64,000 bases of DNA from Octopus vulgaris (Eukaryota), in contig OX597819.1 of NCBI GenBank assembly GCA_951406725.2, positions 131,006,001 through 131,070,000 of the forward strand. The letters are read 5' to 3'. The notes below the pieces were generated by a model. It did not search any database and was not told where the DNA came from. It was given only the letters and a program-made list of their open reading frames with translations. A program made the translations under genes and the position numbers. Every line of letters begins with the position of its first letter. Within the stretch, counting starts at the first letter, position 1. Below, one piece after another: positions 2,707 to 53,071 of the stretch.

Positions 2707-3669
2707 ATTAGTGAATGGAAGAAATGGAGTTGAACGAAGATTGTACAGAATTCCTTTTATTACATTCTACACATGTTTCAAAGGCCACAATTTTCCAAAT
2801 TCTGATTAAATAAGGATACCATATTGCAGCTTTCTCTTCAGGAAAAACCAGGAATTACGTTGTCAGAACAAAACAAAACAAAGGCGCAGCAAAGCAATTC
2901 GAACGAGGACGCTCGTTAAGAGCCCATGGGTAAAATGTTTATCAATGTACGTTGAAATCGGGGGGTTGGTGGGGGCCGACAAAAAGGTCCGTTGGAATAA
3001 ATCCAGGTCAGGCCGCGGTCAAATCTAGTAGGTGAGGAATTAATGAGAACAAGGGGTGTGGAGATGTTCTGTGTGACCAAAGTTAATATTCTGAATATTT
3101 TAAGAATTCAGGGTGTATTTTTTAGGTGCGAGACAATACCTACCTAAAAGCATGTGTGTGTATACTAGCCTATGTGTGCGCCGCCGTATGTTGGCGAGGG
3201 GCGCTAGATAATGAGCACTGCTGACAAAAGCCTGTCAGGCGGCTGAAATAATTCTGTGTTCGTGTGTCCGTCTGTGGCCTGCTTGTCTAAAAATTATCCT
3301 CGTCAAAGAATCAGGGGGGTATATAATTCCAGCGCTTGCTTCTAAAAAACCGACCAATCGCCTAAAGGGAGTAATTTCCCCTTGCAATAGTAATTCAGAG
3401 ATTTTTAAAAAATTTTTTCAAAAATTATTTTCATTTTAATAGGGTATCAAGGTGTTAATTGTCTTAGGTATCATTTATATGTAAGAAACGTATGACGCCG
3501 CCAATGGGGACATCGAAAAGCAGTCTGTAAAAGCCCGTTTACCAAACGGCCTCTAGCGAACAATATGTGGAAAAGCTGTGATTTTTTTCTGCTGTGATTT
3601 TTGCTACCCAGGTATCGGTTAAATTTTTGAATAATCCGTAACAAGATAATTCATCTTTCCATTTCAACA

Positions 3670-5791: not shown

Positions 5792-8700
5792 CGATAACTG
5801 TCCTTTCAAATTTGGAAACACTTATTGTAAAAGCAAAGTGCCAAATACAGAATGTGGCCCCTGCATCAAACAGGCCCTCTTCTTATTGTGGTTTGGTTGT
5901 TCTTTACCCAGAGAATTATGTTGTGCCCAATTTTGACCTGCATCAGCTGCCACCAACTGTTTGTAATGGTTTTGAAGTTATCCTATCTCATCTGGAACCA
6001 ATTCAGACTAAGCTTCCAACCTTCATCATCATACGAGATGTGTAGGATGTAACAGAGAGTATTGTAAGCCTGGTCAACCTGATATAAGTTTGTACATTAT
6101 TCCAGCAAGGTGATTTCATTTCCAGTGTGTCCAACCCTATTTCCCTATTTTAAGTAAGGGATGATTTGAGAGAAATTGGGCTGCTATTTTTAGCAGGTCA
6201 CATATCAATACAAAGGTGTTTTCTTGTTATTCTAAAGCAGTGTTTCTTGACCATTTTTTACCCTTTGATTCCTGTTTTACTTGGGTGAACCCCAGAGCCA
6301 TCTTATGTTTTAAAAAAAATCATATTATATTTTTACAATTAAATATTATTAAGAATTCATCATCATCATCATCGTCGTCATTTAACGTCCACTTTCCATG
6401 CAAAGCATGGGTTGGACAGTTCGACCGGGGTCAAGGAAGCCAGGAGGCTGCACCAGGCTCCAGTCTGATCTAGCAGTGTATCTACAGCTGGATGCCCTTC
6501 CTAACGCCAACCACTTTATGAGTGTAGTGAGTGCTTTTTACGTGCCACTGGCACAGGTGCCAGGCAAGGCTGGCAACAGCCACGATCATTTGGTATTTTT
6601 ACATGCCACCGGCACGGAGGCCAGTCAGGACGGCGCTGGCAACGGCCATGTTCGGATGGATCTTTTACGTACCACCGGCACTGGTATCACAACTACAATT
6701 TCCATTGATTTTTGATCGATTGTATTTAAAAAATTGCTGAAATATTTTGTGTATTGTAAAAATAGAAGTAATTTATTGCACAGGAATTTTAACAACAAAA
6801 TCTTGTATGGACCCTGGATGAGAACCACTTATCTAAAGTAAATCTGTTTGATTGTTGCTTAGTCCTTGGTCAGTTGCAATCATATAAAACTTTGTTGAAA
6901 AGCATTCCAGTCATGAAAATCCTGTTGTTTCATAGGTCAAGAATTGTTGTTCAATATAACATTTAAAACAGTGGAGTGGGATTTTGTGAGAGATCTTGAT
7001 ACTATTTTCAGCAAATCAAATAAACCTGGTAATGCCAGGTCATAGTGCTAGTGCATGCATATACAGCTACGTGAGTGCGCACATACATGCGAGTACTGTC
7101 CAAATCTCCGACCAGTCACATACAGCTCGCTGGCATTCAATTGGCGTATCAAGTTTCGGGCATTTTGATTGGGTTTTGGATAGAAAATTCACAAAAAAGT
7201 CACTTCTATTTTTTTTTAATGATTTTGCAGGGTGACTGGGGAAATGTAAAGATGTGCATGACCACCGTTGGACGGTTTGAATGACCATAGAAAGTGCGAA
7301 CCCCCTAACTGAAAAATTGTGGATTTGTTTAAAGGACACACACACACACATTTTGTTGTTTATATATAGAGATAAAGAAGAAAAAACAAACTTGTCTTCC
7401 ACTGAATAACACTCTTTCCCCTCTACCTTTCTCTTATACTTTATATGTGGTTGAACTAAAACAGAAGGGATAAGTTTTGTCCATTAGATCAGTAAAGTAG
7501 TTGTAGCGGCACAAGCAGCCAGCGCCATATTGGAAGAGATCTCACAGCAGCCATTGCCATCTCCAAGACTGGAGCGAGACCTCACCTGCATCCATTTGCC
7601 ATGTGCGAGATCACAACAAGGCTCACGATGGAAACGATATAGACGGAAAACCGATTCAGACCTGTCTCTTCTCTTCTACAGTGCCATTACACAGCATCAC
7701 TGGCTGAACACCATCTCTAGCAGAACTTTCTGCCTGTCTGTCTCCAGAGGCAATGCACCCACACTATTCGGAGCTTATGATGGTAGCTGAGAGCAGCACA
7801 CTTCACCTTTCCTGTAAATAAACCAGGTGTAAATAGCAGATGTACTTGAAGTCTTTTCTCTTCACCTGCCGAAAGCCTGAACTACATAAAGAACAAGAAG
7901 AATGATGGAAGGAGATGATATTCCTCCGATATCATAAACCTTGCCTTCCATTATTAAATAGTCATCATTAGAAGCAGTTTGAGTTTTGACTTAACGAGAA
8001 AAAGGTGGTAAAGGGAAGGTTTTATATTTTTGTTTTTGTTTTAATTACATATTAACACAAGTATCATTAGAAGATTGCATTATTAAATATTACATTGCAA
8101 TTTGCAAAAGGCTGACATTTTGCTAATAATTTTTACCTTTTACTTTAAGAGTTTTTCCAGTGAACAAGTCACCCCTGGTACTTATTTTGTAAAGTATGGC
8201 AATTACTCTATCTGTCTATTTTGCTAAACAGCTAAGTTACAGAGACATAAACCAACACCAGTTGTGAAGAAGTGGACAGACAAACACAAACACATATATA
8301 CATACACATTCTTTTACTTGTTTCAGTCATTTGGCTGTGTCCATGCTGTTGATTCTTAGCGGGGGGGGGGGACTCCAGTGTTATAGGAACATCATGTCGT
8401 TTTACCATAAGACTGTCAGGTTGGATAAATAGCAAACAGTTTGCTTCTTCACTTAGAGATGAACAACAAACATTTTGCTTCTTATCAATCTCTTTCTAAT
8501 TAATCCACACTGAAGAATGGTGTAGCCCCCAGAGGCAAAATCACTTTTGGCACCATTATCTGGCCTCCGTGCCGGTGGCACGTAAAAGACACCATTCGAG
8601 CATGAACGTTACCAGCATCGCCTTACTTGCACCTGTGTTGGTGGCATGTGTAAAAGATTCGAGCAAGGTCATTACCAGTGCTGTCTGACTGGTCCCGTGC

Positions 8701-13812: not shown

Positions 13813-13963
13813 CTCCTCTTTCCTCGCTTTCCTTTTCGTACGAAGCGACGGCCGCCGCCGCCGTCACGTGACCCTCTGCCCGCACCACGTGGCCTCCGTC
13901 TCTTTCCGCAGATTTCCTCCATAAGTGACACAACACGTTTTCGCGTCAATCTAAGTCTTAAAA
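13813..13963 (+). promoter_or_regulatory. RPLP2: Putative RPLP2 promoter and non-coding exon 1 (TCT/5'TOP motifs, two E-boxes, splice donor)
   Basis: CpG-rich island. CTCTTTCC motifs at 13816-13823 and 13900-13907; CACGTG at 13865 and 13886; donor AAA|GTAAGT at 13964; no ATG. The coding exon starts CAG|A-ATG, so an upstream non-coding exon is required. The link between the two is inferred. Confidence 0.7.
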
Positions 13964-14639
13964 GTAAGTCGCTCTTTCCAACCAAATTCTTACCTTTTTT
14001 CCTACCAACTGTTTCACTTAAACCTCTTCTACCTTCTGATTAATGTTTTAGATGCTTCTTACGACTTTTAACCTTAAAAAACGGAATTCCTTTTTCTCCC
14101 TCACTCCTCATGGAGCACAGCCATGCTGTCTCTCTTCAACACTTTTGTCTCTGATTTACATTAAAATGCGTTTTCCGTAGGAATTATAAAATTTCCTAAG
14201 AATTCTTCATACAGTCTAAATTAATAAAACGCAATATTTTATTATAAGTGAACCTATTATTGAAACTTTACATTTATTTCTTAACTTTTGCTTAAAAATT
14301 AATCCCTTTTTTTTCAATACATTTTAAAACTTAAGGACTACTATAGCTTTATATATATATTAATTAATTTAGGGTTCAGCAACGATTTGCCTCACCACAC
14401 AACGAATTTAGAAATAGCAGTCAAAAAGTTTTGGCTATTCTTTCTACTTAAAAGGGAGAAATTAATGATTATTTCTAAATTAATTAATTTCACCCTATAT
14501 TATTGATATATGTATATATAGCTGTGGTAATCCTTAGGTTTTAAAATGTATAAAACAGGGATATTCATTTCATTTAGCTTCAGCTCACGAGCTGTGGCCG
14601 TGCTGGGGCACCGTCATTAAAATTAGGCGAACCAGCCGT

Positions 14640-14912: not shown

Positions 14913-15041
14913 GCACTCCTCGACTGCTTTCACTCTTCATAGATTGTGAGTTACTGTTTTAAAGTGCAATATTAACTCGGTGATCCTGCGTACACCAACT
15001 GTCCTAATTCAGTCAGGTGCCCGTTAAGACACCGGACAATG
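14913..15041 (+). ncRNA. Candidate box H/ACA snoRNA, copy 1 (most diverged)
   Basis: Hairpin GCACT...AGTGC, H box ATATTA (ANANNA), hairpin TCGGTG...CACCGG, ACA at 15036-15038 plus 3 nt; ~130 nt; intronic in a ribosomal protein gene. Confidence 0.65.
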
Positions 15042-15819: not shown

Positions 15820-15899
15820 CAGTATAGATGATGACTTTCGAATATTTTCTGATTGTATGATTAAGATTTTATGCTACTTTACCACCGTCTGATATACTG
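15820..15899 (+). ncRNA. Candidate box C/D snoRNA, copy a
   Basis: Terminal stem CAGTATA/TATACTG, box C ATGATGA (15828), D' CTGA, C'-like ATGATTA, guide GCTACTTTACCACCGT, box D CTGA (15889); 80 nt. Confidence 0.8.
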
Positions 15900-16510: not shown

Positions 16511-16640
16511 GCACTTCCTCGACCACTTTCACTCTTCATAGATTGTGAGTTACTGATTAAAAGTGCTATATTAACTCTGTGATCCTGCGTACACCAACTG
16601 TCCTAATTCAGTGTGGTGCCCGTTAAGACACCGGACAATG
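16511..16640 (+). ncRNA. Candidate box H/ACA snoRNA, copy 2
   Basis: GCACTT...AAGTGC hairpin, H box ATATTA, second hairpin, ACA at 16635. Confidence 0.65.
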
Positions 16641-18367: not shown

Positions 18368-18497
18368 GCACTTCCTCGACCACTTTCACTCTTCATAGAT
18401 TGTGAGTTACTAATTAAAAGTGCTACATTAACTCTGTGATCCTGCGTACACCAACTGTCCTAATTCAGTCAGGTGCCCGTTAAGACACCGGACAATG
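18368..18497 (+). ncRNA. Candidate box H/ACA snoRNA, copy 3
   Basis: Same architecture; H box ACATTA; ACA at 18492. Confidence 0.65.
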
Positions 18498-19995
18498 TGT
18501 ATAATTTAAGTCTGCTTCTACGCAGGAGTTCTGATCCTGTTTTGATGTACGTATGGAATGATATGAATTTGGCTAATTCGAAAGTCTAACAGTTATGACT
18601 ATTTAAAATCATTACCTTTTAACAGCCTAGGTAGTGAGATCGAGATCAAATGCAGAGTTTGCCATTGAAGGATACAGGGTCATCTACAACGCTGTTCACA
18701 GTATGATTTCACTGAATTACGAGTTTAGGCGCTGCCCCATTTGGTACCTCTTATGTGAGTGTGTTTCGAAAGTCCATGAGAACTCGTCTGTACTGTTTTT
18801 AATATATTTGAAGCCTAAGGTAGTGAGATCGTGATCAAATGCAGGGCTTGCCATTGAAGGATACAGGGCCATCTACAACGCTGTCCACAGTGTGATTTCA
18901 CTGAATTACGACTTTAGGCGCTCCCCCGTTTGTCACCTCTTATGTAAATGTGTTTTGTGAAGGAAAGTATCTCGTGTTTCGAAAGTCCATGAGAACTCGT
19001 CTGTGTTGTTTTTAATATGGAATTATTGAAATAAACTAGCAGTACAGACTTGCCATTCTTTTTATTTTATAGACATCTGCGAAAGGGCACCCGAACTAAT
19101 TATATTGATGAGATTTTGTCCTAACCCGGTCTTTGTGTTACTATTGTAAAATATATTTGAATAAACCTTGTATGGCTCATTTTTCGGTGTTTGGGCAATT
19201 GAAATTTCTCGGAATTAATGGGATGTTGCTTTCTTTTTGAAGTTTGTCCTCAGATGAACCCTAATCTAACAGAAATGTAATTAAAGAAGTTCCAGTGGTC
19301 GTTTCTGCATTTTTAATCTGAGATTTGTAGGGAATTTGGCTGCTATTTCTAAACAAGTTGCCCTCTTCTCTCTAACCAATTGTCTTTGTTACTGGAGTAA
19401 GCACATCACTACTATTGTGATTTTATTACGCATCTTGTTTATGTAGAATTGTAGACTAATGGGGCATCTGGGATCTTCAAAGAGAATCTCGACTAGAGAA
19501 TACCCTAACCCAGACCATGTCGAAGCCAGTGGTTTAGGTGACTGTATAGGCTTCAAACCATCTTTTTTTTTTTTTTTTTAACCGGTTAATGTTAGTCAAG
19601 TAAGTGTGGTCTTATGAAAAAGATGTTCACTTGAGACATGCTGGTTTGAGTTCAGTCCCACTGGACAGCAGTGTGCAAGTTACATTAGGCCCAACATGCA
19701 AAACTGAAAGCCCAGTTTTGCTCAAGTGATATTTGCCCCCTGTAATAGGGGTCTTGTCATTGCTGCCTTTGGAATTATAGTTTGTGTCTGGACTAGTTTT
19801 ATATTTATTTTCAGGCGAGGGAAATAGTATTTAGGATAATGTTCGGCATGTTATATGTCTTTATGATTTTAAATTAACACGGACTGTGGAGCAGTTGCTG
19901 ACATCTGGGGTTCTAATGGAAGCTAAGACATGAAAATTATTTATAACTGAAGGTGTGGCATATGGGTTAGGGTTTCCATAGCTGCCATTTCTAGA

Positions 19996-20655: not shown

Positions 20656-20785
20656 GCACTTCCTCGACCACTTTCACTCTTCATAGATTGTGAGTTACTG
20701 ATTAAAAGTGCTACATTAACTCTGTGATCCTGCGTACACCAACTGTCCTAATTCAGTCAGGTGCCCGTTAAGACACCGGACAATG
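20656..20785 (+). ncRNA. Candidate box H/ACA snoRNA, copy 4
   Basis: Same architecture; H box ACATTA; ACA at 20780. Confidence 0.65.
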
Positions 20786-21870: not shown

Positions 21871-21950
21871 CAGTATAGATGATGACTTTCGAATATTTTC
21901 TGATTGTATGATTAAGATTTTATGCTACTTTACCACCGTCTGATATACTG
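21871..21950 (+). ncRNA. Candidate box C/D snoRNA, copy d
   Basis: Identical to 15820-15899. Confidence 0.8.
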
Positions 21951-22587: not shown

Positions 22588-22717
22588 GCACTTCCTCGAC
22601 CACTTTCACTCTTCATAGATTGTGAGTTACTGATTAAAAGTGCTACATTAACTCGGTGATCCTGCGTACACCAACTGTCCTAATTCAGTCAGGTGCCCGT
22701 TAAGACACCGGACAATG
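22588..22717 (+). ncRNA. Candidate box H/ACA snoRNA, copy 5
   Basis: Same architecture with fully paired TCGGTG/CACCGG stem; H box ACATTA; ACA at 22712. Confidence 0.7.
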
Positions 22718-23102: not shown

Positions 23103-23382
23103 ACAGATGATGACTTTTTGATGCTCTGAAAGCCTGATTAATTTTCTATATTTCTTTATTACCCACTAGGGGCTAAACACAGAGGGGACAAACAAGGACA
23201 GACATAGGTATTAAGTCGATTACATCGACCCCAGTGCGTAACTGGTACTTAATTTATCGACCCCAAAGGGATGAAAGACAAAGTCAACCTCGGCAGACGA
23301 AATACCGCTAAGCATTTCGCCCAGCGTGCTAATGTTTCTGCCAGCTTACCACCTTAATTGCTACATTACCACCGTCTGATGT
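23103..23382 (+). pseudogene. Diverged paralogue of the C/D snoRNA, split by a family-A SINE (~23150-23355)
   Basis: AGATGATGACTTT...CTGA...CTGATTAA before the SINE; TTGCTACATTACCACCGTCTGATGT after it. Confidence 0.7.
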
Positions 23383-23754
23383 ACTTCTATGGCAAGCAAT
23401 GTGGAGATTTAACTGTTTACAAAAATAAACTGTTCAATTAGTAAATAATTGTCCCAAAAGCCTCTTAATTTCATTTTTTACGTTACACAATAAGAAACCT
23501 AAAATGCATTTTTATTTTTCAATCTGAGATTCACTTCAATTTATATTAGCTTCAGTTTGTGTGTGTGTGACAAATTTTTGCTGCTTTATAATTTTTTTAT
23601 TAGAGAAGTTCTGTTAAGGTGACTGTAACAACAAATTAGTATTTAGTGTGTTGAAAACTGGGTCTCAGATTATGAGATGCAGTCGTCAGATGAGTGAGTG
23701 TAACATAAATTTGCCTTATTGACAGGTGTGCATTTTCTTTTATCTCATTGCAGA

Positions 23755-25018
23755 ATGCGTTACGTGGCCGCTTATCTCCTTGCCACCCTTGGGGGTGTGA
23801 AACAACCAACTGAAGCTGATTTGGAGAAGATTTTAGGCAGCGTTGGTATTGAGGCCGAAGCCAGTAAAATGAAGAAAGTCATCTCACAGCTTAAGGACAA
23901 AGACCCAGCCACTCTCATTAAAGAAGGTAATTTTGGCACTGCCACGTTTATTTGTTGTTGATATTTGCACGTAAAAAGCACCCACTACACTCACGGAGTG
24001 GTTGGCGTTAGGAAGGGCATCCAGCCGTAGAAACATTACCAGATCAAACTGGGCCTGGTGCAACCTTCTGGCTTCCCAGACCCCAGTTGAACCGTCCAAC
24101 CCATCCTAGCATGGAAAGCGGACGCTAAACGATGATGATGATGATGATGATTGGCCCTCCTTTCGTTTTGTCTTGCAAGTCACTTGGTAACTTGTGTTGG
24201 CGCAAAGAAAAGCACCCGATACACACTGTAAAAAGATGGTCGTTAAGTGTCGCATAGAGAATTGTGTTGCCCTGTGACGACAGTTCTCTGGCCGGCCAGA
24301 TCCTGTCAAACTGTCCCAACCCATGGCAGCATAAAAAAACAGACATTAAATGATTATGACTTTTCTTTCTGTTTCTTCTTTCAATTGGGGGTGGATGAGT
24401 CAACATTACTTGTGTGTGCAAACAAAAGTTGGCCGTAAAACTTGACCTGCCTTCGAGTTGCTTGAGCTGCTTGGAGGATAAGGTATTAAACGTGTAACAA
24501 ACTGGAGTTGGCTTGCACAAAGGTCAGTTTGATGAAGGCTGGTTTAGGAGGGGAGGGTCTTTACTCAAAGAGAGATGAAAGTTATGATGGATGTGCAGGT
24601 TATGCCCTTCCACTAAAAGAGCCTACAGAATTCGTTGCAGTGATGTAGTATGCTGGTGTTTTGTTGATTCTATTTCTTGACTGCAGTTCCTTAGAAATAT
24701 TGTGTCTGGATTTGATTGGGTTTTCTTTTTCTCTTCTTTCACAGGTCAACTGAAGCTTGCATCTGTCCCAAGTGGAGGTGGTGCTGCTGTTTCTGCTGCA
24801 CCCGCTGCCTCTGGTGCAGCACCTGCAGAGAAAGCTGAAGGTGAGAGACTAAAACATTCCCTCTTCATTTTTCTTTTCTTTTTACTTTTTAATTTCCTTC
24901 TGTATTTTTCTAATATTTATATTTTTTCCTTTAATTCTCCATTACAGAAAAGAAAGAAGAGAAGAAAGAGGAGTCAGAAGAATCAGATGATGACATGGGC
25001 TTTGGTCTCTTTGACTAA
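23755..25018 (+). CDS. RPLP2: 60S acidic ribosomal protein P2, 112 aa; join(23755..23926,24745..24840,24948..25018)
   Basis: MRYVAAYLLATLGG...LEKILGSVGIEAE...IKEG / QLKLASVPSGGGAAVSAAPAASGAAPAEKAE / EKKEEKKEESEESDDDMGFGLFD*. GT-AG introns keep frame (172+96+71=339 nt); ATTAAA at 25043. Confidence 0.97.
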
Positions 25019-49900: not shown

Positions 49901-50402
49901 CATTGAAAGGGACTGTTCAAAAGTAGGAAAGTGAACCTGTGATAGTTACAATAGTTGTACAATTTGTTTCTTTGTGTTCTTTATTCTTTTTTATATAATT
50001 ATGCCAATTGCATTACTTTCTGACTCACTAATGGTTCTTGATAGGTGAATGTTAAATTTGGAATTGTCGACTGTGCTGCCCCCAGGTTATTATAAGATGA
50101 AGTTGCAATTACATTTGTAGATTTGCCTGTATACTGTATTGAATGATGGTTTTCTGGTTATTATTCTAATTGAGATCATTTTAAACTCTGAGGACTATAT
50201 TTCTAGCAAAAAATACTCGTAATGCACTTTGGTTGAGAACTTAATGGCCTGTGACATATTTTTCTTTTGAATTTGGTGTTTGGAATAGAACATGTTTATA
50301 GTAATCTATTGTGAAATTATACGTTGTCATCAACACCACCACCACCATCATTGTCACCTTTGGTCATACCCTTCCCGAATTATGTTTTAACTTTAATGTA
50401 CT

Positions 50403-50465
50403 AATTGTGATGAATAAGATATCGCCCCAGTCTGAATTGTGTGAATGGTTTCAAGTATCATTGTG
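50403..50465 (+). pseudogene. SNORD31: Diverged SNORD31-like copy, terminal box D not recognisable
   Basis: GTGATGA(50407)ATAAGATATCGCCCCAGT-CTGA(50432). Confidence 0.65.
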
Positions 50466-50811
50466 TTCAGGTTGGTGTCCATGTTCTTAGAACTGTAGTT
50501 TGAAATAAGGCTGCTTTGTCTCTGGCAATTTGAGAGGGAATTGGCCGATTCCTTTTGCAGTCAAATTGTCTTTTTAAAGCTGAATACTTTCGAAACTTTT
50601 TGATTGTGCTCAAATCAGCTTCTTTTTATCAACTATAAAGTTTAGCTTTGTTCAAAAGAGACATTGCCTACAAATTGGTATTTTTAAATTGTGTGTCCCA
50701 GCAACTGCATAAGAGAGAATATATTTTAATCTATTTTTGCAGATTCAAAAGACACTCTGGCTTCTCCGTGGAAAAGTTGCTGGAATGCTCTGGATGAGCA
50801 TTGGAAACCTA

Positions 50812-53000: not shown

Positions 53001-53071
53001 GTACTAAAGTGATGACAATGATACCGCCCCAGTCTGAATTTTGTGCGGAAACGGTACAACTGATTTAGTAC
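53001..53071 (+). ncRNA. SNORD31: SNORD31/U31 (snR67-like) box C/D snoRNA, copy 1 of 7 identical
   Basis: Stem GTACTAAA/TTTAGTAC, box C GTGATGA, guide ATACCGCCCCAGT plus D' CTGA (as recalled for vertebrate U31), box D CTGA. Guide is complementary to 28S ACUGGGGCGGUA (P-loop Gm). Confidence 0.92.

Follow-up and report, generated by a model that had tools for sequence, protein, structure and literature searches.

A repeated box H/ACA-type RNA at the Octopus vulgaris RPLP2 locus whose 3' pocket fits both an 18S and a 28S rRNA uridine

The closest described systems are H/ACA snoRNAs with assigned or complementary sites in 18S rRNA. Human 18S U406 and its Xenopus counterpart U371 are assigned to SNORA71 (U71), and the fly equivalent, 18S-363, is a strong pseudouridine call with a log2 change of about 4. 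Similarly, 18S-U1174 is assigned to SNORA40 (ACA40), and its fly equivalent 18S-1205 is also a strong pseudouridine call. The Caenorhabditis RNA ceN46 (RF01636) is an H/ACA snoRNA (PMC2442092). No published target for ceN46 was found in the literature.

Published rules constrain such guides. Pairing requires at least 8 bp, three pairs on the 5' side have sufficed, and two mismatches abolish H/ACA activity under normal conditions (PMC6049503). The box-to-target spacing is 13–16 nt, with 16 nt being less common (PMC8763049). Even a good predicted pairing may leave its target unmodified, as with SNORA71 on 28S-4502 (PMC8522698), and point mutations are documented to switch snoRNA targets (PMC6984369).

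The repeated RNA and its genomic setting

The window, i.e., the whole stretch of 64,000 nucleotides analyzed here, contains five copies of a box H/ACA-type RNA. The copies are ~130 nt long, share 90–98% identity with copy 5 and lie in tandem units of ~1.6–2.3 kb. The main features are as follows.

13899..13970, + strand: putative non-coding first exon, as read from the sequence, in which a pyrimidine tract occurs together with a GTAAGT donor; presumed start of the host transcript
14913..15041, + strand: copy 1, the most diverged (90% identity to copy 5, with differences chiefly in the 5' hairpin)
16511..16640, + strand: copy 2
18368..18497, + strand: copy 3
20656..20785, + strand: copy 4
21871..21950, + strand: SNORD34/33-like box C/D RNA (scoring 33 bits against a cut-off of 38)
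22588..22717, + strand: copy 5, box H/ACA-type RNA with two hairpins, H box, ACA and a 3-nt tail
22588..22643, + strand: 5' hairpin of copy 5
22645..22650, + strand: H box of copy 5, ACATTA, which fits ANANNA (ATATTA in copies 1 and 2)
22653..22711, + strand: 3' hairpin of copy 5, with lower stem 22653-22658/22706-22711 and upper stem 22669-22672/22692-22695
22659..22668, + strand: 5' pocket strand of the 3' hairpin of copy 5
22696..22705, + strand: 3' pocket strand of the 3' hairpin of copy 5
22712..22714, + strand: ACA box of copy 5
23755..25018, + strand: RPLP2 (acidic ribosomal protein P2) coding exons (PF00428, E 9.5e-5; P2 chains, E 7e-13)

An ANANNA hinge box and an ACA after the second hairpin were identified in 5/5 copies. 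This complete anatomy of two hairpins, H box and ACA bears out the earlier note, which had read the element as an H/ACA RNA. The hairpin-hinge-hairpin-tail fold of copy 5 has a z-score of −2.7, with 1 of 200 shuffles equally stable, and the z-scores of copies 1 and 2 are −1.8 and −1.9. In copies 2–4, the lower stem of the 3' hairpin has one broken pair. The scaRNAs carry a CAB box with a UGAG-type consensus, and no such box is present in the apical loops predicted by the copy 5 fold (UCAU and UCCUAAUU).

No H/ACA family was found by Rfam searches over 11.5 kb, either at gathering score or at E ≤ 10. When copy 5 was scanned singly, the best match was ceN46 (14.3 bits, E 0.65), which falls short of the gathering score of 50 for this family. 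Single scans also gave weak matches to ceN104 (copy 5), SNORA19 (copy 1) and TB11Cs5H1 (copy 2), and none for the 3' hairpin alone; ceN46 did not come up again with copies 1 and 2 or with this hairpin. The weak matches are mostly to H/ACA families.

The motif CCTGCGT occurs on the + strand of the window only at positions 14985, 16584, 18441, 20729 and 22661, and CCGTT follows 36 nt after each. As had been claimed, these pocket strands are invariant among the five copies (0/12 arm columns vary) and the spacing to the ACA is 15 nt, with CCGTT starting at 22697 and ACA at 22712 in copy 5. Among copies 2–5, substitutions occur at 5/131 RNA columns and 29/366 flank columns (Fisher p = 0.16). Because the copies are such recent duplicates, the invariance of the pocket is weak evidence. 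With the most diverged copy taken in, the 3' hairpin varies at 3/67 columns compared with 14/38 and 16/23 in the flanks. None of the 42 base pairs (0/42) shows a two-sided change among the copies.

The five-copy array sits between the putative first exon near 13900 and the RPLP2 coding exons, and RPLP2 is likely its host gene. The SNORD34/33-like box C/D RNA is present in four repeat units (~1.9 kb), at 15820, 17628, 19996 and 21871. These four copies are identical, and their D' guide differs from the SNORD34 consensus. A fifth copy is seemingly split by a SINE-like insertion (23106–23390); the sequence near 23170 is presumably a SINE.

Several other elements were observed in the window. Eight SNORD31 copies at Rfam gathering score lie at 50.4–61.1 kb, well beyond the end of RPLP2, and a ninth SNORD31-like copy (50400–50470, motif at 50423) scores below the cut-off. 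The sequence AAACGGTA, whose letters are those of the 28S target loop described below, occurs between the C' and D boxes of SNORD31 copies (53050–53060 and six more). It was considered as a partner of the 5' strand of the pocket and rejected; it cannot pair with that strand and is probably a coincidence. Ten nucleotides at 14059, near the first donor, and in two repeat units at 18906 and 21006 form the complement of the conserved 18S rRNA 3' end, with one base changed in the other units; this is possibly another guide RNA. In copies 2–4 only, 9 nt perfectly complementary to the 5' pocket strand are present ~25 nt past the ACA (16662, 18519 and 20807). This stretch looks like a 3' splice site and like the 5' half of a small hairpin, and could rival the pocket in the precursor. 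A tRNA gene with a GAA anticodon is located at 125–197.

Two candidate rRNA sites for the 3' pocket

Against the 28S rRNA of other species, positions 22697–22701 form five pairs and 22661–22667 form 7/7 pairs, giving 12/12 Watson-Crick pairs in a 15-nt register. The earlier note had proposed this 5+7 geometry around an unpaired U, and the pairing geometry is right. The 28S target corresponds to human U4218 in helix 81 (PMC11724314), two bases 5' of m6A4220. A human 28S oligonucleotide carries the target motif, in which m6A4220 is the second A 3' of the uridine (PMC6954407). The metazoan 28S motif given in the earlier note is real, occurring in this oligonucleotide and in 5 of the 101 metagenome matches listed.

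The target had also been placed ~22 nt from the G methylated under U31 and near the peptidyl-transferase center. The distance is 22 nt in 28S rRNA; the tie to U31 looks incidental, because the SNORD31 copies lie at 50.4–61.1 kb, past the end of RPLP2. The nearness of U4218 to the catalytic center is one in sequence; the P-loop base Gm4196 contacts tRNA C75 (PMC10281867). The more relevant neighbor, m6A4220, had gone unmentioned. In the 28S register the guide pairs with A4220–G4226, i.e., with the methylated adenine itself and the 3' side of the stem-loop on which ZCCHC4 acts.

To survey this region, metagenome rDNA was searched with a pattern composed of the complement of the U31 guide and the complement of the 5' arm, with the loop left open. 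The sample comprises at least 101 matches in at least 93 loci, some sharing contigs, and the five loci checked are eukaryotic large subunits. The target uridine is present in 100/101 matches listed. The three bases before it vary, with AACGG in 5/101 and AAUGG in 2/101 of the matches listed, and the 5-bp arm is possible in 7/101 of these, while the other 94 give 0–2 pairs. In both full large subunits that carry the motif, the 28S site is the top site for the pocket, and it also ranks first in 5,733 nt of target sequence. A score as high with 12 Watson-Crick pairs was obtained in 20/1000 shuffled and 4/1000 random window arm pairs against this target, which includes 1,830 nt of small subunit cut by position, with a presumed 5' end, from one metagenome locus (L006); without the small subunit, the corresponding numbers are 3/400 and 2/400. 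If the RNA already guides 18S-406, the match is less significant than these controls suggest, because 8 of the 12 paired guide bases serve both sites. A second match of the 3' pocket, at position 750 of locus L075 (3+10 pairs with G-U), is missing from the top list of locus L065 and was rejected. Locus L075 also has histone 3' stem-loops (694–739 and 3016–3062) adjoining its rDNA unit, and four loci (L004, L037, L050 and L058) have two rDNA units ~7.1–7.2 kb apart on single contigs.

To our knowledge, yeast has no pseudouridine at this 28S position. The literature search, which covered openly accessible text and a subset of the supplements, retrieved no report of a pseudouridine at this uridine, and no pseudouridine map of a mollusc or C. 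elegans. In the available part of a Xenopus/human guide table (PMC6984369), the position numbers 4188 (human, in the old numbering) and 3313 (frog) turn up solely as parts of genome coordinates. The available part of a tobacco table lists Am2643, a methylated pseudouridine at 2653 and nothing at 2644 (PMC10281867); this table gives human and yeast positions only where tobacco is modified and is no proof of absence there. A permissive fly Psi-seq table, in the part available, has rows 6423, 6425, 6427 and then 6444, with none at the equivalent position 6435 (PMC9997552). Term searches of the available text of PMC8351944, PMC13542104, PMC10662448 and of the supplement to PMC12723226 yielded no usable information about the site. 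Overall, the searchable portions of the human, frog, fly and tobacco tables hold neither a guide nor a pseudouridine for the site, in agreement with the earlier note, to which the site was not known as a pseudouridine in human or yeast. Near the site, the same partial tables show a methyladenine (human) and a ribose methyl (tobacco and yeast), and no pseudouridine. A preprint on the octopus ribosome compares 0.5 kb of 28S surrounding helix 88 with squid, Aplysia and human and finds ~90% conservation; it also reports a ribosome model deposited as PDB 9EHO. The available part of its main text prints no rRNA sequence, and neither pseudouridine nor snoRNA is mentioned there (PMC13321053).

The same pocket fits a second site, which the earlier note had missed. 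The 18S look-alike AACGGG-UA-ACGGAG (human U406) ranks third in the pocket scan. Here the pocket is shifted by one nucleotide, giving a 16-nt spacer, and C22696 is paired. Among 40 small-subunit sequences found (38 scorable, many related), 26/38 allow 7 or 10 contiguous pairs with the 3' strand and three with the 5' strand. G22664 faces G at +4 in 40/40 sequences, and C22661 faces A, a second mismatch, in 22/22 of the 18S variants listed. In all five copies, G22664 and C22661 suit 28S alone, and C22696 and A22702 suit 18S alone; C22696 lies unpaired opposite A22668 when the pocket is in the 28S register. Of the 12 guide bases paired with 28S, eight also form contiguous pairs with 18S. Crude two-arm energies overlap, with −18.6 kcal/mol for 28S and −17.8 and −19.9 kcal/mol for the common 18S variants. 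In both registers, the 3' pocket forms at least 8 bp with rRNA of other species and places a U at 13–16 nt from the box.

The 5' pocket forms 4+4 pairs with the 18S-1174 equivalent at 17 nt, outside the range of 13–16 nt and unlike ceN46-type spacing. It also forms 4+4 bp with a U of the 28S sarcin-ricin loop, 15 nt from the H box (22594–22598 and 22630–22633), in copies 2, 4 and 5, and more weakly in copies 1 and 3. The scan gave several equal 8-bp candidates, and neither of these two sites stands out. A loose search of the whole window for further RNAs that might guide any of the three sites (at least 10 pairs, G-U allowed) gave hundreds of matches or more and was uninformative.

Target assignment and its alternatives

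Our preferred reading, with a probability of roughly 0.55, is that the RNA is an intron-encoded H/ACA guide whose 3' pocket still directs pseudouridylation of 18S-406 and may also modify the 28S uridine. It is likely that the RNA descends from an 18S-406 guide and that 18S-406 is the ancestral target. The 18S assignment is supported by a predicted pairing that reaches the 8-bp minimum, by a 16-nt spacing that is allowed, by the pseudouridine in fly and the SNORA71 assignment in human and frog, by ceN46 as the best Rfam match of copy 5, and by crude energies similar to those for 28S. It is weakened by the mismatches at G22664 and C22661, by the optimal spacer of the 28S site, by the low score of the ceN46 match and its absence from the other single scans, and by the marginal fit of the 5' pocket to 18S-1174. 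That only the 18S site is modified is possible. That one pocket modifies both sites through a one-base register shift, with the ancestral 18S-406 target kept and the 28S target gained, appears rather unlikely. The earlier note had proposed a new 28S pseudouridine, and the pairing geometry for it stands; the 28S match may, however, be a by-product, because a conserved 18S uridine, known as a pseudouridine site, suits the pocket as well. A pseudouridine at the U4218 equivalent, which requires an octopus 28S loop as in human, has about even odds.

In the preferred reading, the guide RNA would be released from the RPLP2 pre-mRNA and assembled with dyskerin, Nop10, Nhp2 and Gar1, as expected from its class, and would presumably pair with pre-rRNA while the target helices have yet to form. 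Pairing at 18S would use C22696, with 7–10 pairs upstream and three contiguous pairs downstream of the target and a spacer of 16 nt. Pairing at 28S would leave C22696 unpaired opposite A22668, with 5+7 pairs and a spacer of 15 nt. Because the guide at 28S pairs with the m6A adenine and the strand beyond it, the snoRNP and the ZCCHC4 methyltransferase would either follow a fixed sequence or compete for the same stem-loop.

Complete target switching is somewhat unlikely. The pocket would then guide only the 28S helix 81 uridine, as a lineage-specific modification, and another RNA would serve 18S-406. The 12/12 Watson-Crick pairs at 15 nt and the top rank in 5,733 nt agree with a switch, the 28S site needs exactly the two bases that break complementarity to 18S, and switches by point mutation are documented (PMC6984369). 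The ~90% 28S conservation near helix 88 (PMC13321053) also favors it. However, C22696 and A22702 pair with 18S only and are kept in all five copies, the 5-bp arm is allowed by just 7/101 of the 28S matches listed, and the available tables list no pseudouridine or guide at the site.

It is improbable that this is a real H/ACA RNA modifying neither site, whether with a snRNA or other target, as an orphan, or as poorly expressed copies. The 5' pocket without a convincing target, the lower-stem pair lost from the 3' hairpin in copies 2–4, and the frequent failure of predicted pairings on real rRNA (PMC8522698) are consistent with this. A 12-pair match, however, occurs in just 0.4–2% of control arm pairs, both pairings pass the published minimum (PMC6049503), and the predicted apical loops have no UGAG-type CAB box. 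Finally, chance hairpins in a recent tandem duplication are highly improbable: the missing Rfam family at gathering score, a substitution rate not significantly below that of the flank (p = 0.16) and the 0/42 two-sided pair changes are outweighed by the complete H/ACA anatomy with a folding z of −2.7, the weak Rfam matches mostly to H/ACA families, the retention of the RNA in the most diverged copy (3' hairpin 3/67 versus flanks 14/38 and 16/23) and the C/D snoRNAs in the same repeat unit.

If only 18S-406 is modified, the RNA would be a routine orthologue missed by Rfam. If the 28S uridine is modified, the RNA would add a pseudouridine to a loop with none in the tables searched, and look-alike rRNA sites would have let a guide gain a target by two substitutions. 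If both sites are modified, the gain of a target would have been caught midway, in an octopus ribosome reported to differ at the nearby helix 88, and the new 28S pseudouridine would lie two bases from the ZCCHC4 m6A. In any case, scans against one rRNA, or by the longest perfect match alone, can miss an ancestral target.

Comparison with known guide RNAs

Compared with ceN46, the octopus RNA shows the same layout, CCGUU in the 3' pocket strand and an identical last 11 nt. As judged by eye, the pockets of the ceN46 consensus complement 18S-406 (3') and 18S-1174 (5'), sites that the octopus pockets also fit, marginally for 1174. The ceN46-type 18S-406 site forms 7–10 and three pairs with the octopus 3' pocket, with the G-G mismatch at +4; ceN46 has a C where the octopus 5' strand has a G. 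The spacers of ceN46 are 15 and 13 nt rather than 16 and 17 nt, and the perfect 28S match is an addition of the octopus pocket.

Vertebrate SNORA71 resembles the octopus RNA in its 18S-406 assignment and in having a further pairing predicted with 28S. The 28S position concerned is 4502, however, which is inactive in yeast, and SNORA71 gave no Rfam match at E ≤ 10. SNORA40 is comparable in that 18S-U1174 is a marginal candidate for the octopus 5' pocket, but its other target is 28S-4546 and no Rfam match was found. SNORA52, which we take to be the vertebrate snoRNA in RPLP2, is an H/ACA RNA that would share the host gene; it targets 28S-U1731 and also gave no Rfam match. We did not file the element under ceN46 or SNORA71, because the Rfam scores fail.

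Alternative pairings of one pocket are described for SNORA53, SNORA57, SCARNA1 and SCARNA8 (PMC8763049), and one copy of Xenopus SNORA2 is listed for both 28S-U3390 and 18S-U34. The dual loops that have been tested modify neighboring uridines of one RNA. In contrast, one of the two octopus sites is not a known pseudouridine, and the two sites lie on different ribosomal subunits.
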